This document shows, one piece after another, positions 10,081 to 29,980 of a stretch of 39,820 nucleotides of DNA. Below the pieces are notes generated by a model. That model saw only the letters and a program-made list of their open reading frames with translations. It was not told where the DNA came from and ran no database searches. Location of the stretch: NCBI GenBank assembly GCA_964508365.1, contig CAZDTP010000036.1:1-39820 (forward strand), read 5' to 3'. The number at the start of each line of letters is the position of its first letter. Position 1 is the stretch's first letter. Origin of the DNA: an uncultured archaeon. Its GTDB lineage: Archaea > Asgardarchaeota > Lokiarchaeia > Sigyniarchaeales > SOKP01. The translations under genes and the position numbers were made by a program.

Positions 10081-10099
10081 TTTTTTTTAATTTTTTTTT
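10081..10099 (+). terminator. Oligo(T) archaeal terminator
   Basis: T8-AA-T9 directly after the TAA at 10080, between convergent genes. Confidence 0.6.
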
Positions 10100-11729
10100 A
10101 CTCGTTTAATCGTTTATGCGTTTTTTTCATAATTTTATAAATGTTTGTGAACTCATAGAAGAGCTTTTCGTAAACTGCTCTGTTATCGGGATTTGGTCTA
10201 AATACATTGGAAAATTGGATTAAATCTGGTATTTGATCCCAAGTTAGATATCCAAGTCCAACTGCTGCGATGAAAGCAGCCCCACGAGCATTTGCCTGAA
10301 TAGGATCTTTAACTTGCTTGATAGTTCTATTTAGGACATCGGCAAAAATTTGACACCATACATTACTAGATCCCCCTCCCCCAATGATGTTAAGTTCGGG
10401 CATTACTATATCTTTTTTTGTCATTCCAGGATTAGCTTTCATTTTCCATTTCTGGATGAATTTTTCAACGTACATATGAAGCCACCTTACATTGTAGGCA
10501 ACGCCTTCAAATATCGCTCTTATTAGGTGTTCACGCGACATCTCAAGAGATAAATTGTAAAAACCTCCACGAACCATATGATCATCAACGGGTGATCTTT
10601 CTCCGATAAGCCACGGAGTAAAAATCAAATTATTGGACCCCGCAGGAACTTTCTCAACAATTCTATCTAAAATTTTATATACATCAGGGACCTGTTCTTC
10701 TCTCAACAATTCATCTTTATGATACAAAATTTTATCTCTTAAAAATTGTAAAGCTCCTCCAGCGATTTCTTGTTCGTTTGCTACGAAATATTTTCCCTTA
10801 ATTGCAGCAGGAAAACTTCCCATATTATGAAATATATCTGTTTTCTTGTAAGGTACGTGGCATATCAGCCAATCAGATGTTCCAATGTAAATATGTCCTT
10901 CGTAATCCTTAACTGCTCCAGAACCTATAGTTGCTGCATGCAAGTCGGGAGCACCCATAATCAATCTGACTCCCTTGTTTAGACCAAGTTTGTTTGCTAC
11001 TTCGTCTTTCACGGGCCCTAGAACATCTGTGGACCACCTTAAATCAGTCGGAAATTTATCCGGATCAACTTTAAACATTTTCATTAACTTGTTATAGTAT
11101 CTCATGTTGTTAATATCGCGGATATCAACTAAGGTATGCATTTGAATGGAAGCATACGAGGCTGCGAATTTACCTGTGAATTTCAAATTAATAAAGTCTT
11201 GAGGTTCCAAAAACATGTAAGTGTTATCATATACATCTGGTCTCTTATCCTTTATCCATAAGATATGAGCAATGGGATCTTTACCAGATAAGCTTGGACC
11301 TCCTCCCGTAACCTTCACGAATTTTAGCATTTTGCGAACAGAGTATCCACTAACCTGTATTAAACTCTTATGGAATTTCTTCATGTATGGTGCTCCTCGG
11401 GTATCCATCCATATCAGTGAATTCATCAAATGATTTCCGTCTTTGTCAAGGGCAACTGTACCACTCCATTGACTTGAATTGCATACACCTACAATATCAT
11501 CAGCTGAAACTTTTCCACTATTAATGACTTTTTTAGCTGTTGAAACAATGGCATTCCACCAGTCGTCCGGATCTTGTTCAACACCCCCACCTTTTTCCAC
11601 AAGTAATGGAACTTCTTGAAAGGCCCAATCAACTACCTCTCCGTTAGTACTTACGATCGCTGATTTTGGACCTTGAGTTCCATGATCGATTGCTAAAATA
11701 TATTTAGGAGAATTTTCTTTATCTAACAT
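10098..11729 (-). CDS. FGGY-family carbohydrate kinase
   Basis: AIDHGTQGPK, SSQWSG, WMDTRG, GAPD, YIGTS, TPWLIGER, IIGGGGSS. Confidence 0.9.
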   Translation of the reverse strand: MLDKENSPKYILAIDHGTQGPKSAIVSTNGEVVDWAFQEVPLLVEKGGGVEQDPDDWWNAIVSTAKKVINSGKVSADDIVGVCNSSQWSGTVALDKDGNHLMNSLIWMDTRGAPYMKKFHKSLIQVSGYSVRKMLKFVKVTGGGPSLSGKDPIAHILWIKDKRPDVYDNTYMFLEPQDFINLKFTGKFAASYASIQMHTLVDIRDINNMRYYNKLMKMFKVDPDKFPTDLRWSTDVLGPVKDEVANKLGLNKGVRLIMGAPDLHAATIGSGAVKDYEGHIYIGTSDWLICHVPYKKTDIFHNMGSFPAAIKGKYFVANEQEIAGGALQFLRDKILYHKDELLREEQVPDVYKILDRIVEKVPAGSNNLIFTPWLIGERSPVDDHMVRGGFYNLSLEMSREHLIRAIFEGVAYNVRWLHMYVEKFIQKWKMKANPGMTKKDIVMPELNIIGGGGSSNVWCQIFADVLNRTIKQVKDPIQANARGAAFIAAVGLGYLTWDQIPDLIQFSNVFRPNPDNRAVYEKLFYEFTNIYKIMKKTHKRLNE

Positions 11730-11852
11730 ATTAAATATAAATGTTCTTAACGTAAATAAAGATTTTTTTATGTAAGGCTTTCCTATTTATATTAAGTCTT
11801 TTTAATTGACGATACCATTTAATAACTGAAAGAAACATTTTGTTGATTCTAA

Positions 11853-13250
11853 ATGGAATATGAGGAAAAATTAGCGAAAATTAAAAATATTGTTGATTTG
11901 CCCATAAGCAAATTTAAACCAGATGAATTAAAAGCTATAATAGAGAGGTATGAAAAAAATCATACGAAATCAAAAATGGCTTTTGAGAGAGCAAGAAAAA
12001 TAATCCCTGGAGGTGTAGAACATAATCTCGCCTTCAACTGGCCATTCCCTCTAGCAAGTAAGCGGGTTTTTGACTGTTACATGGAAACTGTTGATGATGT
12101 CGTTCTAACGGACTATTTAATGGATGGAGGTCCTATTATCCTCGGGCATAATCATCCGGTTTTGACAGAAAAGATTATCGAAGTTATTCGGGAAATTGGA
12201 CCATGCCATGGAATAACTAACGAATATGAATATCTTGCTGCTGAAGAACTTCAGAAGCATTTTCCATCTTGTGAAATAATAAGATGGCTCCAAACAGGAA
12301 CAGAAGCCGATATGCTAGCTATAAGGATTGCCAGAGTTGCTACAAATCGTAAATGGGTTATTAAAATAGGTGGCAGTTATCACGGATGGTCAGATCAATT
12401 GGTTTACGATATGCATGTTCCTGGAACAAAATTATTAGAATCACATGGAATACCAAAAAACATATTTAAATTTATCGATTCTTGTCCTCCAAACGATATT
12501 GAAACATTACGGCAAATGTTTGCAGAAAAGCGAAAAGTTGCTGCCGTTATAATTGAACCAATGGGGGGAGAATCAGGAGCTATTCCTGTTAAACCTGGAT
12601 TTAATAAAGAAGTGGAAGAACTTTGCCATGAAAATAATACCCTTTTGATTTCCGATGAAGTTGTATGTGCTTTTAGATTGCATATGGGTGGTGGTCAAGC
12701 TTATTATGGTTATGAACCGGATTTATCTGTGTTTGGTAAAATAGTTGGACATGGATATCCCTCCGCTGCAGCTATTGGAGGTAAAGAAGAATTTATGAAA
12801 TATTGCGCTGCAGGAGTAGGTGGAGGTAAAAGAGCTTATAGCGGAGGAACTTTAGCAGCAAATCCTTTAACTTGTGCAGCTGCGTATCATGCTATTAAAT
12901 TAGTCGAAGAAACTGGGGCGACGGAAAAAGCTGGAAAAGCAGGAACTCGCTTAGCGAATGGATTAAATAAAATGTTCGAAAAATACGAGTTACCATGGTT
13001 TTCGTACAATTTAGGTGGCACAGTTCATTTTCATACATCGTGCCTATTTGGATTGAGTTTTGATATTCCTGACCAAGTTGGACAGCTTCCATTGAGGAAA
13101 AAATTTATGGAGCATATAGGTGCCGCTTTGGTAGATCAAGAAATAATTTCCGTTGCAGGAAGTAGATTTTACATGTGTATTCTCCATTCCGACGAGATAA
13201 TCGATGAGACCGTTGAAAAAATAGATAAAATATGTCAAAAAATAGCATAA
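11853..13250 (+). CDS. Class III PLP-dependent enzyme, glutamate-1-semialdehyde aminomutase-like but divergent
   Basis: GPIILGHNHP, QTGTEA, GSYHG, IIEP, SDEV, PLP Lys in VFGKIVG, GGTLAANP. Confidence 0.85.
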   Translation: MEYEEKLAKIKNIVDLPISKFKPDELKAIIERYEKNHTKSKMAFERARKIIPGGVEHNLAFNWPFPLASKRVFDCYMETVDDVVLTDYLMDGGPIILGHNHPVLTEKIIEVIREIGPCHGITNEYEYLAAEELQKHFPSCEIIRWLQTGTEADMLAIRIARVATNRKWVIKIGGSYHGWSDQLVYDMHVPGTKLLESHGIPKNIFKFIDSCPPNDIETLRQMFAEKRKVAAVIIEPMGGESGAIPVKPGFNKEVEELCHENNTLLISDEVVCAFRLHMGGGQAYYGYEPDLSVFGKIVGHGYPSAAAIGGKEEFMKYCAAGVGGGKRAYSGGTLAANPLTCAAAYHAIKLVEETGATEKAGKAGTRLANGLNKMFEKYELPWFSYNLGGTVHFHTSCLFGLSFDIPDQVGQLPLRKKFMEHIGAALVDQEIISVAGSRFYMCILHSDEIIDETVEKIDKICQKIA

Positions 13251-13259
13251 TTTTTTTTT
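13251..13259 (+). terminator. Oligo(T) archaeal terminator
   Basis: T9 immediately after TAA 13250. Confidence 0.55.
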
Positions 13260-13372
13260 ACATTAAATAAAATTCTTATTTTTTAATTAAGTAAAACCTC
13301 TGTAGGCTAAAACAAATAATAAACTTTATTATCTCTAAACTCGAATTATACATATTCTAAAACAAAATTAAA

Positions 13373-14407
13373 GTGAAAGTTATGGGTAATCAGAATGAGA
13401 TAACAGATTCGTCAAATTTGTTTAATGATGATGGCTCCCTTGTTCAACGAGGATGGGCAAGAAAACCAATACTAAAATACAATAAAGATAAAATTGGAAA
13501 AGGTTGGTCCCGCATTAAAGAATGGGATCACTTTTCTGTATTAAATAAAAACTTCGGATTTCAGTTAACGATAGGCGACATTGGATACCTAACCCAAATG
13601 AGTTACGTTTGGTTAGATTTTGAAAAAAAAGAACGCGATGGAAAGGGGTTATTCAAATTTTTTACCAAATCAAAGGTTCTTCCATTGAATTCGTTAGAGG
13701 ACAGCGAAATTGAATTTCCTACTAAAAAATTTAAAGCAACAATCTCAAGACAGAAAAACACAAGAATACTTACTATTGAAGATCCCTCGTTTCAAGATAA
13801 AGGGCTAAAAGGAAATATTATTTTACAAGATGATCCTAAAGCTGACAATACCGTAGTTGTGACGGGATATAAAGAGGATCCAAGGTTGTTCTATTATAAC
13901 CATAAGATTAATTATATGCCTGCGGAAGGTTCTCTTACTATTGGAGATAAATCGTATCTCTTTGAACCTGAAACTTCTTATGGGCTCATGGACTGGGGTC
14001 GCGGGATATGGCCCTATAAAACTCATTGGTTATGGGGTTCAGGTTGCGGGCTTGTTGACGAAGTCCCTGTTGCGTTTAATATTGGTTATGGCTTTGGAGA
14101 TTTATCTACTCATACTGAAAATATCATCTTTTACGATGGTAAAGCACATAAGATTGATGAGGTAGAGTTTCATCACGAAAATAGAGATCCTGCTAAACCT
14201 TGGAAATTCACAAGCAACGATAATAGGTTTAATATGATTCTAGATCCAATTATTCCACAGAGAGAAAAACTTAATTTTGGATTAATTTATTTAAATTCTT
14301 CATTACTTCATGGGCTATATTCTGGAGAAGTAGTTCTTGACAATGGTGAAAAAATAAAGATTGATAATATGCTAGGACACGCTGAAGACATTTATTGGCG
14401 CTGGTAA
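13373..14407 (+). CDS. DUF2804-family protein
   Basis: GWARKP, RIKEWD, FYYNHKIN, MDWGRGIWPYKTHWLW, FNIGYGFG, TENIIF; start may be ATG 13382 rather than GTG 13373. Confidence 0.75.
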   Translation: MKVMGNQNEITDSSNLFNDDGSLVQRGWARKPILKYNKDKIGKGWSRIKEWDHFSVLNKNFGFQLTIGDIGYLTQMSYVWLDFEKKERDGKGLFKFFTKSKVLPLNSLEDSEIEFPTKKFKATISRQKNTRILTIEDPSFQDKGLKGNIILQDDPKADNTVVVTGYKEDPRLFYYNHKINYMPAEGSLTIGDKSYLFEPETSYGLMDWGRGIWPYKTHWLWGSGCGLVDEVPVAFNIGYGFGDLSTHTENIIFYDGKAHKIDEVEFHHENRDPAKPWKFTSNDNRFNMILDPIIPQREKLNFGLIYLNSSLLHGLYSGEVVLDNGEKIKIDNMLGHAEDIYWRW

Positions 14408-14437
14408 AAGAAGAAGCAATATTAATTTATTTTTCTT

Positions 14438-15346
14438 TTAATGATTTACAATAACTTCATAGGAATGCTGTTCAAACAATTTTGTGATAATATTTAGATT
14501 TTCATCAGTCAAATCTCCCTTATCCTGATATAAATCTCCCATTCCAACTTTCTCATATTTTGTTTTTGTTAATTTATTATAAGGCATTAAATGTATTTGA
14601 CCATCGTAACTAATTTCGTGCAAGAAGCTTATTATATGTTGAATTGTACTTCTATCTGTATTAACTCCCGGTATTAAAGGGATGCGTGGTATAATTCTTT
14701 CACTCCCTACTTTAGAGAGAATTTTAGAGAAGTTTGAGAGAATCTTTTCGTTGGGTACATGAGTAAATTTCTTATGTTTTTCACTATCAATCAATTTAAT
14801 ATCAAATAGAAATAAATCCACAAATTTAACTAATTCACCAATTAAATCTTCATTAAAGTACCCACACGTTTCTATTGCAGTATGAATCCCTTGTTTTTTT
14901 AATGCTTTAAGCAGTTCTAAAAGAAAATTGATTTGTATGGTAGGTTCTCCGCCAGAAATAGTAGCTCCTCCACCAGAATTATCGTAAAAAGGTTTATCCT
15001 TTAATACAAATTCTACAAGTTCTTCCACGGAGCTCTCTCTACCAATAATTTCCATTACTTGATTCGGGCACATTTCAGCGCATTTTCCACACATAGTACA
15101 GAGGGCTTTATCTCTCTTAATTTCGTCATTTAATAACTGAAGAGCTTTATTAGGGCAAGCTTTAACGCAAATTTCACATAATTGACATTTTTCTTTAAAA
15201 TAAGACATTTCAGGGGATAATTTTTGCGACTCGGGATTTTGGCACCAATCACACTTAAGAGGGCATCCTTTCAAAAAAATTATAGTTCTAATGCCAGGGC
15301 CATCATATATTGCATAATTTTGAATATCAAATATAATTCCGTTCAT
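14438..15346 (-). CDS. Glycyl-radical enzyme activating enzyme (radical SAM with two-ferredoxin insert)
   Basis: DGPGIRT, GCPLKCDWCQNPES (CX3CX2C), CQLCEICVKACP and CTMCGKCAEMCP, SGGEP, HTAIETCG; 8 nt downstream of the GRE. Confidence 0.95.
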   Translation of the reverse strand: MNGIIFDIQNYAIYDGPGIRTIIFLKGCPLKCDWCQNPESQKLSPEMSYFKEKCQLCEICVKACPNKALQLLNDEIKRDKALCTMCGKCAEMCPNQVMEIIGRESSVEELVEFVLKDKPFYDNSGGGATISGGEPTIQINFLLELLKALKKQGIHTAIETCGYFNEDLIGELVKFVDLFLFDIKLIDSEKHKKFTHVPNEKILSNFSKILSKVGSERIIPRIPLIPGVNTDRSTIQHIISFLHEISYDGQIHLMPYNKLTKTKYEKVGMGDLYQDKGDLTDENLNIITKLFEQHSYEVIVNH

Positions 15347-15354
15347 AAAACTCT

Positions 15355-17955
15355 TTAAACCATGGTATGTTCAGTTCTCGAAATGATTTCGTCCTGAATT
15401 TCTTTTCCTAAGTCAGTAAAATAAGCAGAGTACCCCCCTACTTTAACAATAATATTTCTATAGCTTTTAGGCTTTATCTGTGCTGCTTTTAAAACATCGG
15501 TCGATACTACAGTAGGTTGGAGTTGTTCTCCCCCTAATTGAAAGTAAGTTTTTATTAACGAAATCCATTTTTTCTTAGATTCTTCAGATTTTCCAATTCC
15601 TGAGGGATGCATTCTAATATTAACCGCACATCCCATTACATGCTCGTATTCTAAAGCAGAAACAGAACGTAATACTCCTGTAGGACCATGCTTCTCGACA
15701 TTGTAAGGATTGCAACTAGCAGCAAATGGTCGACCTCCTAACCTCCCATCAGGGGTTGCTATTGAAATTCTCCCATCATATGTATGGGTTGTCATACTAT
15801 TAATAAAAGGTGCATAAAATCCATCTCTATATGTTTTATATTTGTAAGTCTCATTAAACATATGAGAAGTTACCTTTCTAGCAAGTTCATCTGACTCAGG
15901 ATTGCCATTACCCCATTTTCCATCTAAGTCTAATATTAACTTGTGGATATGTTCATATCCATTGCTAAAATTATTATCAATCGCATTAATCAAGTCTTTG
16001 AAAGTGAATTTCTTTTGTTCAAAAATTAGATTTTTAATAACATAGAGCGAATCAATAGTATTAGCAATACTCGTCATAAATAGAATGCCTTCGCAATCGT
16101 AAATAGCACCTCCCTCAGTTATATCTCTTTTATTCTCAAGACAACCTTGCATAAAAGCTGAAATGTATGGAGCTGGGAGATATTCAGCGTATAATCTATC
16201 GCGAATTGTAGATCCTTCAACGATTTTCTTAATCATAAAATCAGACTGAGCGAAAAAGCCATCTAAAAACTCCTCAAAATTAGAAAATTTATCGGGATCC
16301 CCTGTTTTTAAACCAGCATTCTTGACCAACCCTACTAAGGTTTGCGAATCGCCATTTCTTAACGCTAAATCAAGCGTTCTGCACAATAATATTGAAGAAA
16401 ATCCTTCTCCTCCTGTCTTTCCTGGACTGCACATGTCTACACAACCTGTAACGGCGTAACTATTCGCATCTTCCTGAGTAAATCCTCTATTCAATAAAGC
16501 CTGAAGGCAAATCTCATCGTTCATTAATGATACGCTAGAGACTCCATGGTAATGTAAATCTGCAACTTTCAATAATAGTTTTTCAGGGCTATTTTTATGT
16601 ATACGCACAGCAAAATTTAATGAAGCTTTCGAACGATCAGCTGCTTCTAGCATAACATATGTCAGTTCGTTAGTTGCATCTTCTCCCTCAATCATTAATC
16701 CTCCTAATGTTACAGGCTCGGAACCTTCATATCGTTGGCTAAAATCGCTAGAAGCGTTGGAATTTGGACGCATGTTGTGACTCATGATTTTTAAAAATAA
16801 TTCCTCCAAAAGCTCTCGAGCTTCCTCAGGAGTGATTCGTCCATTAGCAACATCCCTTTCATAGAAAGGATAAAAAATCTGATCAAGACGCCCAGGTGAA
16901 TGGACATTAAAAGGCATTGCTAACTCAACAGCGTTTTTAATTATCCAATACGACTGGACTGCTTCTCTGAATGTTTCTGCTGGATAAAGGGGAACTTTTT
17001 GACAAGTTTGTAGCATTTGGTTTAATACTGCTCTTGTTGAGGGATTTGAAGTGCTTTTTAAAACATCCTCGAGTTTTTCCGCTAACCTTTTTGAATAAAT
17101 CATCACTCCTTCAAGAGCTATGTTTATTGATTCAAGGAACTCTTTTTCATGTTTTGCTAATTTTTTAGAAGCGACAATTAACTCTTGGACTTCATTCTTC
17201 ATAGCCAATAAACCTTTTAGTATTGGTTTTTCATGGTCTAAGATTAAATGCCCTTGCCATACTCCGAGAGCTGAACCAATTGAGGTCACCATATCACTTT
17301 GACCCGTAGATCGAGGTAAATTTTGAATAAAATCTCCGAACTCTCCCGGATATATGTTATTCTCAATAAAAGCCTTTCCTAGCCTATTGGCTATAGTATT
17401 TTCTTTCCAATATGGAAGAAGGTCTTTAAGAAGTAATTCCTTGTCTTTTTCTCTAATCTGGTATGGATTTATTTTCCTAATATCTAACGTATCTGTCCCT
17501 AATTCTGGCATAACAACTCCGATCTTTTTAGAGTGATCTAGAGTTTTAAGTAACCCCTCAGAGCCATACTTATCTATCATATACGACATGAAATTCTTAG
17601 TACCCTCTTTAGCAAAGGTTTTCATTGATTTCTCATCAAGCTCTACTTCAAATACTCTATTGAATAAACCTCGTTCAATGTCGATTGGAATACCCAAGAA
17701 ATTCTCTGTCCATGTGCCAGCAATTCTATCGTCCGGATCAATGTTAAATCCCATTTTTTCGAAGACATTTTTCATTGATAATGCAACACGAACATTATAG
17801 GATAATTTACTGTTTTCAGTCTCTATCCACTTTTCTGTGTAAAATTTTGCCCTTTCTATTGAAATAAAAGGCTTTTCATCGAGATATCTACCGCGGAGCC
17901 GTTTAATTCTATCACTCGCCTTATCGACCATTTCTAGAACAGTAGTTTCAGTCAT
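15355..17955 (-). CDS. Glycyl radical enzyme, PFL2/eliminase-like clade, substrate unknown
   Basis: ISIERA, SPGRLDQ, VTLGG, Cys loop GCVD (16435-16446), KWGN, ATPDGR, Gly loop IVKVGGYSAYF (15430-15444). Confidence 0.93.
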   Translation of the reverse strand: MTETTVLEMVDKASDRIKRLRGRYLDEKPFISIERAKFYTEKWIETENSKLSYNVRVALSMKNVFEKMGFNIDPDDRIAGTWTENFLGIPIDIERGLFNRVFEVELDEKSMKTFAKEGTKNFMSYMIDKYGSEGLLKTLDHSKKIGVVMPELGTDTLDIRKINPYQIREKDKELLLKDLLPYWKENTIANRLGKAFIENNIYPGEFGDFIQNLPRSTGQSDMVTSIGSALGVWQGHLILDHEKPILKGLLAMKNEVQELIVASKKLAKHEKEFLESINIALEGVMIYSKRLAEKLEDVLKSTSNPSTRAVLNQMLQTCQKVPLYPAETFREAVQSYWIIKNAVELAMPFNVHSPGRLDQIFYPFYERDVANGRITPEEARELLEELFLKIMSHNMRPNSNASSDFSQRYEGSEPVTLGGLMIEGEDATNELTYVMLEAADRSKASLNFAVRIHKNSPEKLLLKVADLHYHGVSSVSLMNDEICLQALLNRGFTQEDANSYAVTGCVDMCSPGKTGGEGFSSILLCRTLDLALRNGDSQTLVGLVKNAGLKTGDPDKFSNFEEFLDGFFAQSDFMIKKIVEGSTIRDRLYAEYLPAPYISAFMQGCLENKRDITEGGAIYDCEGILFMTSIANTIDSLYVIKNLIFEQKKFTFKDLINAIDNNFSNGYEHIHKLILDLDGKWGNGNPESDELARKVTSHMFNETYKYKTYRDGFYAPFINSMTTHTYDGRISIATPDGRLGGRPFAASCNPYNVEKHGPTGVLRSVSALEYEHVMGCAVNIRMHPSGIGKSEESKKKWISLIKTYFQLGGEQLQPTVVSTDVLKAAQIKPKSYRNIIVKVGGYSAYFTDLGKEIQDEIISRTEHTMV

Positions 17956-18042
17956 ACTATTGATCCCTAGTATATTCTTTATTTCTATATTTATATATCT
18001 CTAATTTTGGTTAATAATTTTATTCTTATAATAAATCACTCA

Positions 18043-19560
18043 TTATGATGGATTAGGAACAACCAATCCCTTCCAATATCCTATTAGATGATCATACATT
18101 CTATTAAATTCCGACTGTAATGCCTTATACTCAATTGCTTTTTTTTTATCTGGTTCGATAATGAAGCAATTCGCATTTTCTTTAAGGACAATTTCCTCGA
18201 AACTTTTAATAAATCCTAAACCAAAAGCCGCAAGTAAACCACAACCTCTCAAACTTGCTTCTGGTTCATCAGTTAAAATATGGGGGATTTGCGTGATATC
18301 TGCTTTAATTTGATAAAGTAACTTATTTCGAGTTGCTCCACCTACACAAAAGACTTGCTTGATGTCTACTCCTACATTCTTAAAAGTCTGAATATCTCTT
18401 CCAAGTGCTAAACCAACCCCTTCCATCACAGATCGCGCTATATGACCTGCCTTGTGGTTTAAAGTTAAACCAAATAAACATCCTTTTGCATATACATTGT
18501 CTTGTCTTCGTTCACCTAACAAATACGGGTAAAAGATCAATCCTTCACTTCCACTAGATATTTTTTCTGCCATTTCAATCATTTGTTCGTATGAAATTTC
18601 TCCTAAATTAACAGAACTTAAGAAATCTTTACACCATTTCATACTTAAACCACCAGTATCCAAAATAGTAAATGGAATCCACCCGTCAATTACATGCCTT
18701 AAATTTTGTACTGAAGGATTTTTTATAGGTTTATCTTTATGAACGACAAAGAGAGTGCTCGTTCCTGTCATGTCCACAGCTGTTCCTTTCTTAACTAACC
18801 CTAATCCTAGTAAAGAAACCATAAAATCCCCTCCACCTGCTATTACAGGGATGTTGGCTGGAATTCCTATTTCTTTTGAAATTTTTGCATGAGTCTTCCC
18901 AATAGTTTCATATGAGTTATTGATGGGGGCAAATTTGTTAAGATCGATGTCTAAAACTTCAGCCATATAATTTGAGTATTTGTTAGTGGTAAAATCATAG
19001 AGAAATGTCCCTGAAGCTTCACTTGGATCTGTACCAACAACACCTGTAAGTTGATAATTAATAAAATCTTTTGGAACGAGAAACCATTTAGTTTTATTGT
19101 ATATCTCAGGTTGGTTCTCTTTTATCCATTTAATTTTAAAACCTGACCACCCGGTCGTAATTGGATTCCCTGTAATTTTGTTTAGTTTCGATTCATCAAT
19201 TTTTTTTCGTATATTATTACAAATATCCTCACATCGCTTATCCATCCATATTTGGGTCCACTCTGTAGTAATATTCCCGTTATAATCAATTCCAACTGGT
19301 CCATGCATTTGTCCACAAGTACTTACACCTTTAATCGTATTTACATCTACTTTAGATTTCTTTATTACTTCAGAAATAACTTGTTTTGTCATGTCCCACC
19401 AAATTTGTGGTTTCTGCTGAGCCCAACCAGGATAGGGACTATCCACTTCTTGTAATTGCTGTGAAACTGCTAAAATCGTACCTTCTGTAGTAACAATTCC
19501 AGCTCGGATGCTTTGAGTTCCAATGTCAATTGCTAGAATGTTTATAATTTTCCTCACCAT
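18043..19560 (-). CDS. FGGY-family kinase (xylulokinase-like)
   Basis: AIDIGTQSIR, CGQMHG, WMDKR, AGGGD, MTGTS, YPYLLGER, VGGATRN. Confidence 0.9.
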   Translation of the reverse strand: MVRKIINILAIDIGTQSIRAGIVTTEGTILAVSQQLQEVDSPYPGWAQQKPQIWWDMTKQVISEVIKKSKVDVNTIKGVSTCGQMHGPVGIDYNGNITTEWTQIWMDKRCEDICNNIRKKIDESKLNKITGNPITTGWSGFKIKWIKENQPEIYNKTKWFLVPKDFINYQLTGVVGTDPSEASGTFLYDFTTNKYSNYMAEVLDIDLNKFAPINNSYETIGKTHAKISKEIGIPANIPVIAGGGDFMVSLLGLGLVKKGTAVDMTGTSTLFVVHKDKPIKNPSVQNLRHVIDGWIPFTILDTGGLSMKWCKDFLSSVNLGEISYEQMIEMAEKISSGSEGLIFYPYLLGERRQDNVYAKGCLFGLTLNHKAGHIARSVMEGVGLALGRDIQTFKNVGVDIKQVFCVGGATRNKLLYQIKADITQIPHILTDEPEASLRGCGLLAAFGLGFIKSFEEIVLKENANCFIIEPDKKKAIEYKALQSEFNRMYDHLIGYWKGLVVPNPS

Positions 19561-19581
19561 AGGTGCATTATTACGATTACG

Positions 19582-19590
19582 AAAAAAAAA
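19582..19590 (-). terminator. Possible intra-cluster oligo(T) terminator after eda
   Basis: T9 on the minus strand directly after the eda TGA; only 30 nt separate eda from the kinase start. Confidence 0.35.
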
Positions 19591-20226
19591 TCATCCGATT
19601 TCTGATTTTATTAGCGAAAGTGCTCTTTTTGTTAAGGTTTTAATCTCTTCAAAATTACCTGACGATATCAAGTTCTTATTTACAATCCAACTTCCACCAC
19701 ATGCTATAACATTATCTAATTTAAGATATTCCGTCAGAGTTTTATCGTTGACTCCACCTGTTGGCATAAAACGAACATTAGGATATGGTCCAGAAAGTAA
19801 TTTAAGCATTTTTATCCCTCCTGAAAGATCAGCGGGAAAAAATTTGAAAAAATCCAATCCTCTTTCTAAACCCCATTCTATAAAGGAAGGGCTATTAAGC
19901 CCTGGAACAATAGTAAAATTATTTTTAACGCAATAATCAACTACAGTAGGATTGAAACCAGGAGTAACTATGAATTCTGAACCTGCTTCTATTGCAGCAT
20001 TAACTTGGTCGATTTTAAGTACCGTCCCTGCGCCTACTAACATTTCTGGATACTCATTTCTTATTAAAGAAATTGATTCTGCTGCTTCTTCGGTTCTAAA
20101 TGTAATTTCAATTACTGGTAGACCAGCATCCATGAGAGCTTTTGCTAATGGAAGTGCATTTTCAGAATCTTCGATAACAGCTACAGGAATTAGTTTTAAA
20201 TTTTCTATTTTATTTATTACATCCAT
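19591..20226 (-). CDS. eda: KDPG/KHG aldolase
   Basis: IEITFRT, VGAGTV, FIVTPG, Schiff-base Lys in FKFFPA, FMPTGGV. Confidence 0.93.
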   Translation of the reverse strand: MDVINKIENLKLIPVAVIEDSENALPLAKALMDAGLPVIEITFRTEEAAESISLIRNEYPEMLVGAGTVLKIDQVNAAIEAGSEFIVTPGFNPTVVDYCVKNNFTIVPGLNSPSFIEWGLERGLDFFKFFPADLSGGIKMLKLLSGPYPNVRFMPTGGVNDKTLTEYLKLDNVIACGGSWIVNKNLISSGNFEEIKTLTKRALSLIKSEIG

Positions 20227-20242
20227 ACTTAGACCTCATGCA

Positions 20243-21109
20243 TTATTTCTTTTTAACTTTATAAATCATGTTAATTTCTGGGATAAAAATTTGGAGTTGA
20301 GAAGAACTAGATTTTCTCAAGTCTTCTAATTCTTCTTTTGTTACAGTGTTATAAGCGAACATACCAAAATGATGAACTATAAGTGCTTCAATCTTGGCTG
20401 ATTTGCATACATCTATGACTTCAGAGGTTAAAAAATTCCCAGCAATATTATTTTTTAAACGATACTCATCTCGACCATTGATAGGTAACAAAGCTAAATC
20501 TATTCTTAACTCTTTCAATTTCTTAATTAATCCATCATATGGTATACAATCCCCAGAGTGATAGATTCTTACTCCATCAAAATCAAAAACATATCCTAAA
20601 AAGTGGTGCTGTCCTTTATCGTTTACTTTAAAAGTTTCGTGAGCAGCAGCGACTCCAGTTATACTTATCTCTTTTTCCAAAGAAAGGAATTCTCCATCAT
20701 TTAACTGAATGATTTGATGGGGTTTCGCACCCCTATTAACAGCTTCTTCTAATTCTGCTGCGGGTACGATGATTTTTACTTCAGAATTCTTATCGCATAG
20801 AATTGTAATCGTTTCTGGATCCATGTGATCAGAATGAGCATGGGTGCTTAAGATATAATCGATACTTGTCAGTTGATCAAGCGATATTGGGATATCCATT
20901 AAGCGTATATGAGGAAACAACTTTCCTTTATACTTTTTTGATAGATAATCAGAAAGATAGGGATCTATTATAAAAAATTTATTTCTGAACTTGAAAATAA
21001 ACCCAGCTTGACCAATCCAAGCAATACATACTTCCTCTTCAGATGTGGATTTACTTCTAACAAAATCCTTGAGTGAATGAATACTTTCTGATCTAATTTT
21101 AATCATCAT
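20243..21109 (-). CDS. Metallo-beta-lactamase-fold hydrolase, UlaG (L-ascorbate-6-P lactonase)-like
   Basis: WIGQAGF, IDPYLS, THAHSDHMD, YHSGD, LPING, HHFGMF. Start placed at ATG 21109 (or 21106), overlapping the upstream stop. Confidence 0.85.
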   Translation of the reverse strand: MMIKIRSESIHSLKDFVRSKSTSEEEVCIAWIGQAGFIFKFRNKFFIIDPYLSDYLSKKYKGKLFPHIRLMDIPISLDQLTSIDYILSTHAHSDHMDPETITILCDKNSEVKIIVPAAELEEAVNRGAKPHQIIQLNDGEFLSLEKEISITGVAAAHETFKVNDKGQHHFLGYVFDFDGVRIYHSGDCIPYDGLIKKLKELRIDLALLPINGRDEYRLKNNIAGNFLTSEVIDVCKSAKIEALIVHHFGMFAYNTVTKEELEDLRKSSSSQLQIFIPEINMIYKVKKK

Positions 21110-22031
21110 AAATAAAACCAAGTACCATTAAAATATTATCAACTGCTCTAGACATTGCGCGATCAATACTTTCTGTAGTGAAAGCTCCTATATGTGGTGT
21201 ACAAATCGTACGAGGATGGAGAATTAAGTCATTTAGTTCGGGAGGCTCAGTCTTATATACATCTGTAGCATATATAGCAATCTTTCCATTATTTAAGCCA
21301 TCTAATATCGCAGTTTCATCAACAACTCCAGCACGAGCTGTGTTTACTATATATACACCTTTTTTCATTTTTGATATGGCTTTAGAATCTATAACGGGTT
21401 TTTTTGCAGGGGGTAGATGTAAGCTTATGAAATGAGAATTTGAGAGAAGCTCATCAAGTGAAGTATATTCAAAGTCATTAGAAGGATTGTAATTAGCAAA
21501 AGTGAACGGATCATATCCCAGTACCTTCATATGAAGTCCTAAAGCCATTGTAGCTACGCACTTCCCAATATTTCCTACACCAATAATACCTAATGTTCTT
21601 CTGTCGATCTCTATTCCTTTTATTCGTTTCCATTCTCCCTTTTTTAAATCTGAATTACACAACGGTACAGATCGCAATGATGATAACAGAAGAGTTATAG
21701 CTAATTCCGCTACTCCTTGTGCATTGGACCCAGGTGTAGTTTCAACTTTAATTCCAAGCTCTTTAGCAACTTCAAGATCGATATTTTCAATGCCAACTCC
21801 ATTTCTACTAATGACTTTTAGATTTTTTGCAGCTGTTAATACTTTTTTATTAATCACTTCTGTCCCAGCTAAATAAGCTACACATTCAGGTAAGTCCCTA
21901 AGTAGATCTTCTTCAGTTGGTCTTTGTCCAGGAGGCCCAAAGATTAGTTCCAAACCATACTTTTCTAACCTCTTTAATGTATAGTGTCCATTGGCTGTAA
22001 TTGACCGAGATCCAATATAAACTTTATTCAT
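21099..22031 (-). CDS. D-isomer-specific 2-hydroxyacid dehydrogenase (SerA-like, no ACT domain)
   Basis: SRNGVGIENID, VAELA, GIIGVGNIG, VNTAR, DVYKTEP, TPHIG; 310 aa. Confidence 0.9.
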   Translation of the reverse strand: MNKVYIGSRSITANGHYTLKRLEKYGLELIFGPPGQRPTEEDLLRDLPECVAYLAGTEVINKKVLTAAKNLKVISRNGVGIENIDLEVAKELGIKVETTPGSNAQGVAELAITLLLSSLRSVPLCNSDLKKGEWKRIKGIEIDRRTLGIIGVGNIGKCVATMALGLHMKVLGYDPFTFANYNPSNDFEYTSLDELLSNSHFISLHLPPAKKPVIDSKAISKMKKGVYIVNTARAGVVDETAILDGLNNGKIAIYATDVYKTEPPELNDLILHPRTICTPHIGAFTTESIDRAMSRAVDNILMVLGFIYDD

Positions 22032-22055
22032 GCAAGAACCCTTTTTGAAAATTCA

Positions 22056-22640
22056 TTATTTCCATTTTGGATTATCAATTATTTCAGGTTTTCCGTTCTT
22101 TTCAATAACTAATTTACGGTAACCTTTTGTTTCTATTGTTTTATAATCATGTCCGGCATCTGCACGAAATACAAAAAACATGATAAAAGGTTCAGAATCT
22201 GATATATTAATACTCCTATGGGCAAAATTCGGAGGAACATATACAGAAACTCCGGGAGTCATTTCTTGGAGTTCAACATTACCATTAAGATCTTCCATTA
22301 ACAGATAACCATGCCCATTTGTGCAATAATAGATTTCTGCAGTTTCCAACTTTTCATGGAAATGGCCCTTAGTCATAAAGTATTCATCTCCAACTTTTCC
22401 AGGATTTATTATAGTAGTACCAAACGCTAATTCACTTGATTTTTCTGGAATTCCCAGCTCATAAAATTCATAAATACAGAGATCTCCCTTCTCGAGAATA
22501 CTCTCGAGAGCTTCATTATCTAAATACATCCCTTTCATATCAGAAAGCATTCTCCTCGTAGGAATTCGATCTGGGGAATGTCCATCTTTCAAGCTAAATT
22601 TGATTGAAAACGACTTATATTTTTTCATAATAATACCCAT
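22056..22640 (-). CDS. Cupin-type (archaeal) glucose-6-phosphate isomerase family protein
   Basis: GTTIINPGKVGDEYFMTKGHFH, EIYY, AHRSIN, AGHDY; start may be ATG 22628. Confidence 0.88.
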   Translation of the reverse strand: MGIIMKKYKSFSIKFSLKDGHSPDRIPTRRMLSDMKGMYLDNEALESILEKGDLCIYEFYELGIPEKSSELAFGTTIINPGKVGDEYFMTKGHFHEKLETAEIYYCTNGHGYLLMEDLNGNVELQEMTPGVSVYVPPNFAHRSINISDSEPFIMFFVFRADAGHDYKTIETKGYRKLVIEKNGKPEIIDNPKWK

Positions 22641-22646
22641 TTATTT

Positions 22647-23600
22647 TTATTTTACTTTTAATGCTATTTTGGAAAGCTCCTCAAACTTGGGTCCACTTGT
22701 AGGAATGTTTAAGTGAAAAACTTCAGCGATTACCCTCAGCCATCCATGCAAGAAGTAAACCCAACCATCTTCTACATGTAGGTTCTTTTCTTTTTCTTGA
22801 GCTTGTGCTTGTTTTAGGAAAATTAAATCACCTCTAAAATTATAATCCCACACGAATCCATTTGCTGGAAATTCTGCAGAATCAGATAGAGGAGATCCCG
22901 GAAAATCTTTCCCTGCACCAGTTCCATTGATAACTAAAGAATAATGGTTTAAGTTATTAACAATATTATCATTATCTTCTGGTGTTGGGCAATGATGATA
23001 TTTAAAACTTATCCCTGGATTAATTTGAGCATGAATCTTTTTCATATTTTCAAGTCTGGGAATACTTCTATTAGTTACATGAATTTTAGAGGGCCAATCA
23101 TTACTTTCCATCGTTTCTATTAAGTATGTTGTAAGAGCTAAAGAAGCCCCTCCAGCACCCATTATGCAAATTTCTCCCCTCGATTTTTTCCAATGTTCTT
23201 TAGGAATAAAGGCTTCATAAGATAGACCACTTGTTATTGGATCTTTAGCATGTGCCCAGAGCTTTCCATCACTTTTAGAAATACAACTTAATTCTCCAAG
23301 AAGTTTAGCATAGGAATCTACTCCATCAAATAATTCGTAAGCAGCATCATACAAATCTATTTTATGAGAAGTTACCAATGCACCTAATGAATTCTTATCG
23401 TTCTTTATAAATTCTACGATTTCTCGGTAAACTTTAGGTTTATCATGGATTTTACAATTAATTCCAACTATCGGTGTACCTCCAATTCCTAGATATTCTG
23501 CCCAATTCGGAAAAACTCTCATGATCGATGATTTTGTTGTTGTAACTCCAATATAATAAAATGTTGGTTTTTTTGCTGGTAAAAAATCAAAGTTACTCAT
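22647..23600 (-). CDS. Shikimate/quinate dehydrogenase-fold NAD(P) oxidoreductase, non-AroE subfamily
   Basis: YIGVTTTKSSIMRVFP, GALVTSHK, AKDPIT, MGAGGAS, VTNRS, VEDGWVYF. Confidence 0.75.
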   Translation of the reverse strand: MSNFDFLPAKKPTFYYIGVTTTKSSIMRVFPNWAEYLGIGGTPIVGINCKIHDKPKVYREIVEFIKNDKNSLGALVTSHKIDLYDAAYELFDGVDSYAKLLGELSCISKSDGKLWAHAKDPITSGLSYEAFIPKEHWKKSRGEICIMGAGGASLALTTYLIETMESNDWPSKIHVTNRSIPRLENMKKIHAQINPGISFKYHHCPTPEDNDNIVNNLNHYSLVINGTGAGKDFPGSPLSDSAEFPANGFVWDYNFRGDLIFLKQAQAQEKEKNLHVEDGWVYFLHGWLRVIAEVFHLNIPTSGPKFEELSKIALKVK

Positions 23601-23628
23601 CTAAGTTTACCCCTTTCAATAAGAAATT

Positions 23629-25176: not shown

Positions 25177-25244
25177 ATCGATTTTAAAAATATTTTAATT
25201 CCATTAAACTTTTTGAATCTTAATAAAATTAATGCTTGATAATA

Positions 25245-26849: not shown

Positions 26850-28307
26850 TTAAATTCCTAATTCTTTTAACTTTGCTTTATTAGTTGCTACTTTATCTGG
26901 AGTAAGATCGTAGAATTTCCAGAAGATTATTAGTAAGAGTAGTGCAAATATCGCAGGAACAATTGCAGAATGAATTCTAATTCCAAAAAGCGCGAGTTCA
27001 ATGTTAGGACTTAATGCCGTCAATTGTGCTAATGTTGATGCTCCCTCAACAAACCCAGTTAGTATATGCGTTATTGAAATTGTAATAGCGATAAATGTTC
27101 CTCCAAAGCGAGCAAAGAAAGCTTGATAACCGTAATAGATAGATTGTTGTCGTTTATTCGTTTTTACAGCAATATCGTCAAGAACATCCGTTAAAAGCGG
27201 TGCATCAATAAACCAATTACCACCCACACCGACACCAAAAAATAGCAAGAATATCATCCACATCACCAGACCCTGTGCAAATATTAATGGTATAAATGTT
27301 ATAAATAATATCGCACCAGCTATTATACCCATTTTCTTATTATCATTAACCCTTTTAGAAAACCATGTCCATAGGGGAACAGATATTAGAGATCCTAATA
27401 ACATAGCACCAAGTAACAAAGAAATAAAGAAAGCTTCTGCATCTAACAAAAATGTTACGATATAAAAAGCTGATGTTTGAATCATTACCGCTGATACTTG
27501 ATATCCAAAAAAGAAAAGTGCTTTAACAACAAAAAGTTTATTCGAGAGCGCAGTCTTAGCAGATTTAAAAAAAGATTCAACTTCTGTGTCTAAACCTTTT
27601 TCTTTCCGTGTTTTATAATAATCTAATACATGTTGACTTTCTTTTATTCCTGGAATTGCCATTAGGAAAAAAATAAAGCCAACTCCTATGGTTACAAGAG
27701 CAGCAGTAATATAGGTAGGTGCTACTCCAGTAGTAATAAACATCGGTGGTATTAATGCTGCTAATACAAGGCCAATTATCCCAAGTATAGTACCAAAGCC
27801 TTGAGCTGAACGACGCTCATTTAATCCTCTGAATTTATCAGGGAATAAAGATAACACATTTATATCCCAAATAGCAATTAGAAAGTCATATAAGCAAAGA
27901 GTTCCAAGATACCATCCGAAGATTAACCATTGGTTAGCTGCTACGATTGCAGGGCTACCATACCATCCAGATGGAACTAGATAGATAAAAAGATACGCTA
28001 CTAACCATGTTGCTGCTCCAATTACCATCCAAGGGAACCTTCGAACACCCCTCTTTTTTTCCCAGGGCATGTGTATGCGTTCCATTATATATCCCACGAT
28101 AGGATCGTTAAAGGCATTCCAGACACTATATAAAATGAAAGCTGTCATTGCTAGAATTGTAGGTAAACCAATTACAACTTCGTAAAAAAAGAAAACTGTA
28201 AAACCGAATGCTGCAGAAATCCACTGCCCAAATAGTTCCCGGGTACCGTAACTAACCCTAACTCCTAATGAATTGTCATAAACTTCTTTTTCAACTGATT
28301 CTGTCAT
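26850..28307 (-). CDS. GPH (MelB-like) glycoside:cation symporter, MFS_2
   Basis: SYG, WNAFNDPIVG, RRFPW, DVLDD, QSIYYG. Start placed at ATG 28307 by alignment to its paralog; the track uses TTG 28343. Confidence 0.9.
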   Translation of the reverse strand: MTESVEKEVYDNSLGVRVSYGTRELFGQWISAAFGFTVFFFYEVVIGLPTILAMTAFILYSVWNAFNDPIVGYIMERIHMPWEKKRGVRRFPWMVIGAATWLVAYLFIYLVPSGWYGSPAIVAANQWLIFGWYLGTLCLYDFLIAIWDINVLSLFPDKFRGLNERRSAQGFGTILGIIGLVLAALIPPMFITTGVAPTYITAALVTIGVGFIFFLMAIPGIKESQHVLDYYKTRKEKGLDTEVESFFKSAKTALSNKLFVVKALFFFGYQVSAVMIQTSAFYIVTFLLDAEAFFISLLLGAMLLGSLISVPLWTWFSKRVNDNKKMGIIAGAILFITFIPLIFAQGLVMWMIFLLFFGVGVGGNWFIDAPLLTDVLDDIAVKTNKRQQSIYYGYQAFFARFGGTFIAITISITHILTGFVEGASTLAQLTALSPNIELALFGIRIHSAIVPAIFALLLLIIFWKFYDLTPDKVATNKAKLKELGI

Positions 28308-28540
28308 AATAAAAAACTCATATTTTTTAATATCCCTATTCAAATATTCCTATTTATTAAAAATAGAAATATAGATACTTTTTTTTTCTAGAAATATGTT
28401 TTATAAGTACATTTTTAAAGTTTTTTAAACATTTTCTAATTTTTATTTTGATTTATTGATCGTAAAGAAATATAGAAGGACTCAAATTAACCCTAAAAAA
28501 TTTATTCAAAATCTAGTAAAAAGGTATATATAGGAATTAG

Positions 28541-29980
28541 TTACAAGCCAAGTTCTTTTAGTTTTTCTTTATTTGCCGCAACCTTTTCCGGTATTAAATC
28601 ATACCATTTCCAAAATATGAAAATCGTTACAAGTACTAAAATTGCGGGAATAATAGCAGCATGAGCTCGAATACCCAATAATGCTAACTCTGGGGTTGGA
28701 CTTTGAGCAAATAATTGTGCATAACTCGTTACACCGGCTGGAAAACCTGTTAATATGTGTATTATTGCGAAAAGAAAAGCTTGAAATGAACCACTTATTC
28801 TAATAAAAAAAGCTTGATATCCATAATAGATTGCAGCTTCTCGTTTTCCTGATCTTATTGCTATATCATCAAGGACATCCCCCATTGTAGGAGGATCCAT
28901 AAACCATTGACCTCCAAGACCTATTCCAAATAAAAAGAGTGCGATCATAAAAAATAGAAAATCACTAACAAAAAACATCGGTAAAAAGGTTAGGAACATT
29001 ACGAATCCAGCTACTAAACTCATTTTTTTATTGTTATTTACCTTTTGAGAGATGAATGTCCAAAGTGGCATAGAAATAAGAGCACCTATAAGCATAAAGG
29101 CCATGAGTATACCTAAAGTGCCAGCATCTCCTTGGATTACATAAGTTATCATGTAAGGTCCAGATGCTGAGAGTAAGGCAACTGCAGCTTGATAACCAAA
29201 AAAGTAGATTACTTTTATCATGAAACATCGATCTGTGATGGCCTTCTTGGTCGTTTTAAAGAAAGGTTCGCGATCTATTTTTTTAGCGACCTCTCTATAT
29301 TTTTGATATCTAGCTCTCATCTTTGGGTTTTCTCTGGTACCCGGTATCATTAAGAAAAATAGAATTAATCCTATCCCAACACCAACCCAAGCCATAATAC
29401 GATAAGTCTCAGGATGATCTGTTGTTATAAACATTGGAGGAATAATAGAACCTACCGCAATTCCTATCATTCCCATTAATGTTCCAATACCTGTTGCTAG
29501 TCTGCGCTCAGTACTACCTTTAAATTTATCAGGATACTGTGCTGTGGCATTTACATTCCATAAAGTAAATAGCGTATCATAAAGAATAAGTGTAATTAAA
29601 AACCAAGTAAAGATTAACCATTGGTCATTTACTGGGTGCCAATTCAATGGAACTAAGAATATTGCAACATATGAAAAAAGCCAGGGAATCGCGCCTAAAA
29701 AAATCCATGGAAAACGTTTACCCCATCTTTTTTCCCAAGGCATATGAATCCTCTCCATTAAATAACCGATTAGAGGATCATTTACAGCGTTCCATATAGA
29801 GTAAATTATTAAAGCAAACGCCGCAATTCCAACATTTAAACCTATTTCTACTTCATAGAAGAAGAAAACATAAAGACTGAAAGCACCAGTTATCCATTGT
29901 GAAAATGTTTGATAAGCACCATAACTTATCATTATTGGAATTGAATTCTCGCGCACTTCTTTTTCTTTTTTTTCAGTCAT
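28541..29980 (-). CDS. GPH (MelB-like) glycoside:cation symporter, MFS_2 (tandem paralog)
   Basis: SYG, WNAVNDPLIG, KRFPW, DVLDD, AAIYYG. Confidence 0.9.
   Translation of the reverse strand: MTEKKEKEVRENSIPIMISYGAYQTFSQWITGAFSLYVFFFYEVEIGLNVGIAAFALIIYSIWNAVNDPLIGYLMERIHMPWEKRWGKRFPWIFLGAIPWLFSYVAIFLVPLNWHPVNDQWLIFTWFLITLILYDTLFTLWNVNATAQYPDKFKGSTERRLATGIGTLMGMIGIAVGSIIPPMFITTDHPETYRIMAWVGVGIGLILFFLMIPGTRENPKMRARYQKYREVAKKIDREPFFKTTKKAITDRCFMIKVIYFFGYQAAVALLSASGPYMITYVIQGDAGTLGILMAFMLIGALISMPLWTFISQKVNNNKKMSLVAGFVMFLTFLPMFFVSDFLFFMIALFLFGIGLGGQWFMDPPTMGDVLDDIAIRSGKREAAIYYGYQAFFIRISGSFQAFLFAIIHILTGFPAGVTSYAQLFAQSPTPELALLGIRAHAAIIPAILVLVTIFIFWKWYDLIPEKVAANKEKLKELGL

Follow-up and report, generated by a model that had tools for sequence, protein, structure and literature searches.

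Glycyl radical enzymes (GREs) catalyse chemically demanding reactions in the absence of oxygen, and with every class that has been characterised a further pathway has come to light. The described systems closest to the enzyme considered here are the glycerol dehydratase (GD) of C. butyricum (1R8W/1R9D) and the propanediol dehydratases (PD; R. inulinivorans 5I2G, and 9RCO), the (2S)-dihydroxypropanesulfonate sulfolyase HpsG (6LON), and YbiW and PflD, the 1,5-anhydrohexitol 6-phosphate isomerases, in which the GRE yields a deoxy-ketose phosphate and a class I aldolase then releases glyceraldehyde-3-phosphate and a small carbonyl compound. Every characterised eliminase and isomerase retains the Cys-x-Glu (CxE) dyad, and none of the archaeal PFL-like GREs has a known function (June 2026 review); archaeal GREs have been named as a clear gap (2026 review). 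Here, we analyse a 39,820-nucleotide stretch of DNA, hereafter the window (contig CAZDTP010000036.1 of assembly GCA_964508365.1), from an Asgard archaeon of salt-marsh sediment, which encodes a GRE with Asp in place of this Glu. Among GREs, the lineage to which this enzyme belongs is real, conserved and uncharacterised, and the catalytic dyad is a variant one; we denote the lineage the KVGGY clade after its Gly loop. The family is large: it is conserved among the Asgard archaea, which are the prokaryotes most closely related to eukaryotes, and many sediment bacteria have it too. No characterisation of this clade was found in the literature on GREs, Asgard archaea and 2-keto-3-deoxy/deoxyribose-phosphate aldolases.

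The window GRE has the two-domain architecture of GD and PD, along with the thiyl Cys, an acidic residue at Cys+2, an equivalent (H236) of the general acid His164 and an activase of the ferredoxin-insert type. It differs from GD and PD in having Asp for Glu at Cys+2, Lys and Gly for Arg and Ala in the Gly loop, far more polar pocket segments and an insertion of ~70 amino acids (aa), and neither microcompartment shell genes nor genes of a 1,3-propanediol pathway are present near it. HpsG is the best sequence match among the solved structures (376 bits, E 3e-111). Its Gln187 is retained as Q234, whereas the sulfonate anchors Arg183 and Arg672 are replaced by L230 and a gap, respectively, and Glu464 by Asp. 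YbiW and PflD share the pathway logic: GREs of the present family show gene linkage with a kinase and with the aldolase Eda or DeoC. However, YbiW and PflD are only ~25% identical to the window GRE, keep CxE, are linked to the phosphotransferase system and FSA, and are confined to bacteria.

A glycyl radical enzyme with a variant catalytic dyad

The GRE, its catalytic segments and its activase are encoded as follows.

15355..17955, minus strand: GRE of the KVGGY clade, subclade A (CVD); 866-aa open frame with PFL-like and Gly_radical domains
16426..16449, minus strand: Cys loop TGCVDMCS, residues 503-510
16441-16443, minus strand: C505, predicted thiyl Cys, from alignment to solved GREs
16435-16437, minus strand: D507, in place of the CxE Glu, from alignment to solved GREs
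15427..15450, minus strand: Gly loop IVKVGGYS, residues 836-843
15433-15435, minus strand: G841, predicted radical Gly, from alignment and the Gly-loop fingerprint
15442-15444, minus strand: K838, in place of the fingerprint Arg, from alignment
17236..17259, minus strand: WQGHLILD, residues 233-240; H236 aligns to GD His164
16708..16734, minus strand: RYEGSEPVT, residues 408-416; its aligned GD segment contains Tyr339
14438..15346, minus strand: GRE-activating radical S-adenosylmethionine (SAM) enzyme, 302 aa, 8 bp downstream of the GRE

Both domains are whole in the profile search (PF02901, 470.6 bits; PF01228, 71.3 bits). A sequence-only reading of the window had singled out the Cys loop, giving it as 16429-16446, which spans exactly GCVDMC, together with IVKVGGYS, WQGHLILD, FNVHSPG (residues 349-355), RYEGSEPVT and NSMTTH (residues 719-724); all of these are found in the translated frame. 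The same reading held that Asp at Cys+2 replaces the usual Glu, and the HMMER alignments to GD, PD, HpsG and HypD bear this out. C505, invariant in 148/148 aligned sequences, aligns to Cys433 of GD, Cys438 of PD, Cys462 of HpsG and Cys434 of HypD; D507 falls on the CxE Glu (Glu435 in GD), and K838 and G840 fall on the R and the A/S of RVxG. The published fingerprint around the radical Gly, RVxG[FWY]x6-8[FL]x4Qx2[IV]x2R, is matched everywhere but at its first position, where Lys838 stands for Arg: KVGGYSAYFTDLGKEIQDEIISR. H236, invariant across the family, aligns to GD His164, which donates a proton to the departing hydroxyl group (2026 review).

The AlphaFold2 model built on the 148-row alignment has a pLDDT of 95.0 and a pTM of 0.94. 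In a Foldseek search, GRE structures match the model with TM 0.8-0.92; the top matches are GD (1r8w) and the propanediol dehydratases 5i2g and 9rco (TM 0.84/0.92, 26-29% identity), followed by HypD, CutC, A. fulgidus PflD, HpsG, HplG, IslA, PflD and YbiW. The insertion of ~70 aa is clade-specific (residues ~85-155, window 17490-17700), matches no solved GRE in the HMMER alignments and is predicted to form a long helix at 108-144 (pLDDT ~92). Two extra cysteines, C748 and C776, are invariant in the clade. The activase carries a CxxxCxxC motif at residues 28-35 and a ferredoxin-like insert, and scores 347 bits against TIGR02494 (cut-off 174).

Pocket assignments rest on the alignment to GD, HpsG and other GREs. 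By that criterion, many places in the pocket segments where other GREs have hydrophobic or small residues appear to be polar in this family (R408, E410, S412, H352, T725, D727, N749 and Y751), a pattern that fits a polyhydroxylated, possibly anionic substrate. The position of GD Asp447, which we take to be glycerol-binding, aligns to the invariant F519; Tyr339 of GD is presumably a pocket residue as well.

Extent and phylogeny of the family

The patterns [TA][GS]CVD, KVGGYS and R[YF]EGS[EA]P are present in 120/120 of the nearest 90%-cluster representatives (59-98% identity), so that, as judged by these sequences, the CVD and KVGGY loops are fixed family traits and not chance variants. The representatives come from metagenome-assembled genomes (MAGs) of Asgard archaea (Loki-, Hermod- and Promethearchaeota by record name) and of anaerobic bacteria (Desulfobacterales, Dehalococcoidia and others). 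Among 1.8 billion 50%-representatives, the scores are 887 and 853 bits (48% and 45% identity) and then drop to 431 bits (33-37%); because of this gap between 853 and 431 bits, the KVGGY clade is discrete. The GRE also remains under the cut-offs of TIGR01774 (PFL2/GD family; 477.6 vs 678.2) and of all equivalog models, namely HpsG (439.5 of 1000, the best score), HypD (435.8 of 1100), CutC, HpfG, PflD-type, IAD and HPAD. Thus, the earlier view that this is an uncharacterised GRE lineage holds, given the position below every NCBIfam equivalog cut-off and the sharp score gap to other GREs.

For the clade analysis, 78 loci from species-representative genomes were examined by clustering of open reading frames (ORFs) and FastTree phylogeny. 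The KVGGY clade comprises 84 rows (support 100) on a long stem of 0.5 changes per site and consists of two subclades. Subclade A, with TGCVD and R[YF]EGSE, has 60 rows and includes the window GRE; its sister, subclade B, with MGCVE and R[YF]LGS, has 23 rows. Subclade B stands at 45-54% identity, and the two have KVGGYS, QGH, SMTxHTxDGR, AASCNPYNV and GCAVN in common. R408 is found in all members of both subclades, whereas E410 is invariant in A and Leu in B; one subclade-B member has CVD but lacks E410. Among the outside representatives (n=108), position 507 is Asp in only 2 and Glu in 88, Lys occupies position 838 in 13, and Gly occupies position 840 in 4.

The sequence-only reading had noted GCVD and KVGGY together as non-canonical loops. 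Both are indeed fixed in the nearest relatives, but KVGGY also occurs in the CVE sister subclade and in other uncharacterised GREs; the Lys/Gly loop is clade-wide and therefore independent of the Asp. The second Cys of the Cys loop, noted in the same reading, is present here as C509, but that position varies among C, V, A, S and L within subclade A, and we rejected it as a defining feature. The acidic residue that tracks the Asp is E410 of RYEGSE. It is not E413, the Glu in GSE to which the sequence-only reading gave a possible acid/base role; basal subclade-A members have Ala in its place. The D507 and E410 switches fall together on one branch of the tree, in an apparent single event; with only one switch, their co-variation carries no statistical weight, and a statistical test of it was discarded.

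Within subclade A, the Asgard sequences form one group of 31 rows that, in the FastTree phylogeny, the only one built, is nested among bacterial rows, which suggests, from the sequences, transfer between bacteria and Asgard archaea.

In bacteria, the GRE is frequently accompanied by a tandem paralogue whose Cys loop reads ASCVD, with Ser for the Gly before the Cys, one activase serving both copies (loci L026-L028, L035, L036, L038 and L043). The TGCVD and ASCVD copies may form a heteromer or represent a second specificity.

Gene neighbourhoods and the kinase-GRE-activase cassette

The window GRE lies in a cluster of nine minus-strand genes that runs from 25176 down to 14438, spaced by -23 to 87 bp (87 and 8 bp on the two sides of the GRE). 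The order is CrtI-like flavoprotein, shikimate-dehydrogenase-like oxidoreductase, cupin phosphoglucose-isomerase-like protein, 2-hydroxyacid dehydrogenase, UlaG-like metallo-beta-lactamase-fold (MBL) lactonase, Eda, FGGY kinase, GRE and activase. Neighbouring genes include the following.

18043..19560, minus strand: xylulokinase-like FGGY kinase (FGGY1); TIGR01312 347.8 bits, cut-off 380
19591..20226, minus strand: KDPG/KHG aldolase (Eda; KDPG, 2-keto-3-deoxy-6-phosphogluconate), above the NCBIfam cut-offs
20243..23600, minus strand: conserved module of UlaG-like MBL lactonase, 2-hydroxyacid dehydrogenase, cupin phosphoglucose-isomerase-like protein and shikimate-dehydrogenase-like oxidoreductase
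26850..29980, minus strand: two GPH-type (MFS_2) transporters, beyond the nine-gene cluster

The activase adjoins the GRE in 46/57 subclade-A loci, and besides it the GPH transporter is the commonest neighbour family (30/57), followed in these loci by Eda (14), FGGY1 (11), an iron-containing alcohol dehydrogenase (Fe-ADH; 9) and DeoC (5). Orthologues of FGGY1 adjoin the GRE both in Asgard loci (60-80% identity) and in bacterial ones (49-54%). Bacteria have a compact operon with the order TetR-GPH-GRE(-GRE)-activase-FeADH-FGGY1-DeoC, in which DeoC, at 198.7 bits, clears its equivalog cut-off of 117.3. In the window, the lactonase (20243-21121) and the 2-hydroxyacid dehydrogenase (21099-22031) are overlapping separate genes; in locus L025 (16017-17837), the two are fused, in the order of these window genes, into one protein of 606 aa.

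The surroundings of the CVE subclade differ. None of GPH, Eda, DeoC, FGGY1 or Fe-ADH was seen in the subclade-B loci (n=22), and no sugar genes stand among the neighbours, which instead include an acetoacetate-decarboxylase (ADC)-like protein (16 loci), an acyl-CoA dehydrogenase (14 loci), and SDR, NAD-epimerase and TetR proteins. The function of subclade B is evidently not sugar-related. Subclade-B loci (L055-L078) also encode a URO-D-like protein bearing an HMG-CoA-reductase N-domain, and only 6/22 have an adjacent activase.

Of 61 genomes compared from the taxonomic family of the host, roughly a quarter carry a subclade-A GRE, with only 2/11 genus-mates among them. One same-genus genome (L093, G051:C38:44300-64200) is syntenic with window positions 13373-26768, with a class-III pyridoxal-phosphate (PLP) enzyme, DUF2804 and Eda that are 91%, 88% and 85% identical, respectively. 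Between DUF2804 and Eda, it has 110 bp where the window has the activase, GRE and FGGY1. Because this locus is syntenic and yet lacks exactly these three genes, the kinase-GRE-activase trio apparently moves as a cassette. L093 also lacks the MBL lactonase, the shikimate-dehydrogenase-like gene and one CrtI-like gene; its differences from the window are clean cassette-type indels.

A proposed radical elimination upstream of an aldolase

The simplest reading of the locus is a radical 1,2-eliminase that acts on a sugar-like compound imported by the GPH transporter. As the most likely function, and at an even chance, we take the GRE to be a working 1,2-eliminase (dehydratase) that is activated by the radical SAM enzyme encoded next to it. 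In the predicted reaction, the Gly841 radical would be passed to Cys505, and the resulting thiyl radical would abstract hydrogen from a carbon carrying a hydroxyl group. The substrate would be polyhydroxylated, be it a sugar, a polyol or a sugar acid, and may be phosphorylated. The hydroxyl on the attacked carbon would be deprotonated by Asp507, perhaps with the help of Glu410, His236 would protonate the vicinal O-linked leaving group, which departs, and the alpha-keto radical would regain hydrogen from Cys505. Such a step of the diol-dehydratase type would convert -CH(OH)-CH(OX)- to -CO-CH2-, the leaving group being water or, alternatively, a ring ether, O-methyl, O-sulfate or O-glycosyl. The product would bear a carbonyl-CH2-CH(OH) unit, the motif that class I aldolases (Eda in Asgard archaea, DeoC in bacteria) cleave to glyceraldehyde-3-phosphate. 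The FGGY kinase would phosphorylate either the substrate of the GRE or its product. Eda and DeoC both need a methylene beside the carbonyl, and both yield glyceraldehyde-3-phosphate.

A scheme that uses each Asgard gene once can be drawn. The GRE would form a 3-deoxy-hexulose or 3-deoxy-hexose, which the kinase, the cupin isomerase, a C1 dehydrogenase, the lactonase and the 2-hydroxyacid dehydrogenase would convert to KDPG, to be split by Eda; the dehydrogenase-lactonase fusion in L025 fits consecutive steps. In bacteria, DeoC would cleave the phosphorylated product directly, and the Fe-ADH would reduce the small carbonyl compound. We propose, tentatively and at somewhat less than an even chance, that an undescribed anaerobic route begins with the CVD GRE, in which radical deoxygenation of a sugar, polyol or sugar acid (or cleavage of an O-substituent) makes the methylene for the aldolase, and that the kinase-GRE-activase cassette has been exchanged between bacteria and Asgard archaea.

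Several observations weigh against the eliminase reading. An aldolase lies within 10 kb of the GRE in only 19/57 subclade-A loci, although many of the contigs are short. Eda is more widespread than the subclade-A GRE in the 61 family genomes and is often, not always, found within 8 kb of it; genus-mates without the GRE still have Eda, and in one genome (G025) with two GRE copies no Eda was found. With frequent adjacency but no strict co-occurrence, we abandoned the notion that Eda depends on the GRE for its supply. The module of shikimate-dehydrogenase-like, cupin, 2-hydroxyacid dehydrogenase, MBL lactonase and Eda genes occurs with no adjacent GRE in L096, L099 and L100, and in part in L092; standing alone in these relatives, the five-gene module does not depend on the GRE. 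Furthermore, the donor is pyruvate for Eda and acetaldehyde for DeoC, so that one product cannot serve both without extra steps. Finally, an equivalent of His236 is present in 88/108 PFL2-type representatives and so is not specific to dehydration.

The only Eda homologue found in the host genome is that of the cluster, and a search of this genome yielded no DeoC and no Edd equivalog; two IlvD genes are present. The idea that the GRE is a radical replacement for Edd fits the absent Edd equivalog but is weakened, as the Entner-Doudoroff-like module exists without the GRE in relatives.

If the proposed route exists, a function would for the first time be assigned to an archaeal PFL-like GRE, the superfamily would gain a new catalytic dyad in Asp507 with Glu410, and the limits of variation in the conserved Cys-x-Glu dyad would be put to the test. 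In bacteria, the compact operon of genes for the transporter, GRE, activase, alcohol dehydrogenase, kinase and DeoC offers a direct way to the function. Once defined, the function would also correct the hydrocarbon-degradation reading published for Asgard GREs and alter inferences on carbon cycling in anoxic sediments.

Alternative functions

The leaving group might not be a free hydroxyl: the GRE could be an eliminase or isomerase that opens an anhydro-sugar ring, as YbiW and PflD do, or catalyses beta-elimination of an O-methyl, O-sulfate or O-glycosyl group of an imported glycoside, in which case a deoxy-keto sugar would still be formed for the kinase and aldolase. The operon logic is that of YbiW/PflD, with a GRE followed by an aldolase that gives glyceraldehyde-3-phosphate; GPH transporters carry glycosides, pentosides and hexuronides; eliminases and isomerases are all alike in the fold search (TM 0.81-0.84); and radical chemistry is not needed for ordinary sugars or polyols. 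We nevertheless regard this possibility as rather unlikely: YbiW, PflD and HplG keep CxE, GD, PD and HpsG outrank them by both sequence and fold, and no conserved glycoside hydrolase or sulfatase is present in the loci examined. A lyase for C-S bonds (a sulfonate lyase like HpsG or IslA) or C-N bonds (a deaminating lyase for an amino sugar or amino alcohol) would agree with the rank of HpsG as the top PDB sequence match and with the class-III PLP enzyme and PIG-L deacetylase near the GRE in some Asgard loci. However, two of the three sulfonate anchors that HpsG, IslA and IseG share (two Arg and one Gln) are missing, only Gln187 being kept, and the loci have no sulfite-handling genes. The GRE lies >500 bits under the HpsG, HpfG and CutC cut-offs, and the aminotransferase belongs to the separate module of the second FGGY kinase and is absent from the bacterial operons. 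Such a lyase seems decidedly improbable.

Slightly less so, but still improbable, is a chemistry new to GREs, such as C-C cleavage or a redox-neutral rearrangement, that would use the Asp507/Glu410 pair. CxD is absent from all characterised classes, the clade stem is long, and the clade has many polar residues of its own along with the invariant C748 and C776; yet nothing speaks positively for such a chemistry, and the Cys/His/acid triad and the aldolase linkage are more simply explained by elimination. The least credible of the alternatives, which we put close to zero, is the addition of hydrocarbons to fumarate by an alkyl- or benzylsuccinate synthase (Ass/Bss). Asgard (Hermodarchaeota) GREs with one conserved Cys were called Ass/Bss on 29-33% identity (2021 paper), and Hermodarchaeota members do exist in the present family (P0021, L006). 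However, BSS (E 4e-56) and MASS (E 2e-51) match far less well than HpsG, and both stand at fold rank 46 or lower. The gaps of the cluster leave no room for the FeS small subunits (beta and gamma; delta in MASS), and no small ORFs fit. In the alignment, the pocket appears polar and the Cys+2 position is acidic; around the GRE lie sugar genes rather than genes for beta-oxidation of succinate adducts. On the small subunits, similarity, pocket polarity and context, the Ass/Bss reading of these Asgard GREs fails.

Other genes of the window and additional GREs of the host

A second module occupies window positions 8221-14407 and consists of an AMP-dependent ligase, a second FGGY kinase (10098-11729) distinct from FGGY1, a HemL-like class-III PLP enzyme and DUF2804. 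Modules of this type recur by subclade-A GREs in Asgard loci L008, L014, L019, L022 and L024. At the border of the nine-gene cluster (23629-26768), there are two divergently oriented flavoproteins of the CrtI/phytoene-desaturase family; a geranylgeranyl-reductase-like flavoprotein is found in a similar position in other Asgard loci.

The host genome (4.07 Mb, 100% complete) encodes eight PFL-like GREs (contigs C4, C34, C50, C132, C1, C36, C17 and C71), with pairwise identities mostly of 28-37%, three of which have the KVGGY Gly loop. Two others (contigs C17 and C71) combine RITGY or RVTGY loops with an ACVGC motif. One of the three with KVGGY, a second CVD-type GRE 67% identical to that of the window, is encoded on contig 1 (C1:62000-81900, gene 10128-12713 of that stretch) without an adjacent activase. 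It follows two genes similar to the 2-hydroxyglutaryl-CoA-dehydratase D-component and precedes a GFO/IDH/MocA oxidoreductase and an aldo-keto reductase.

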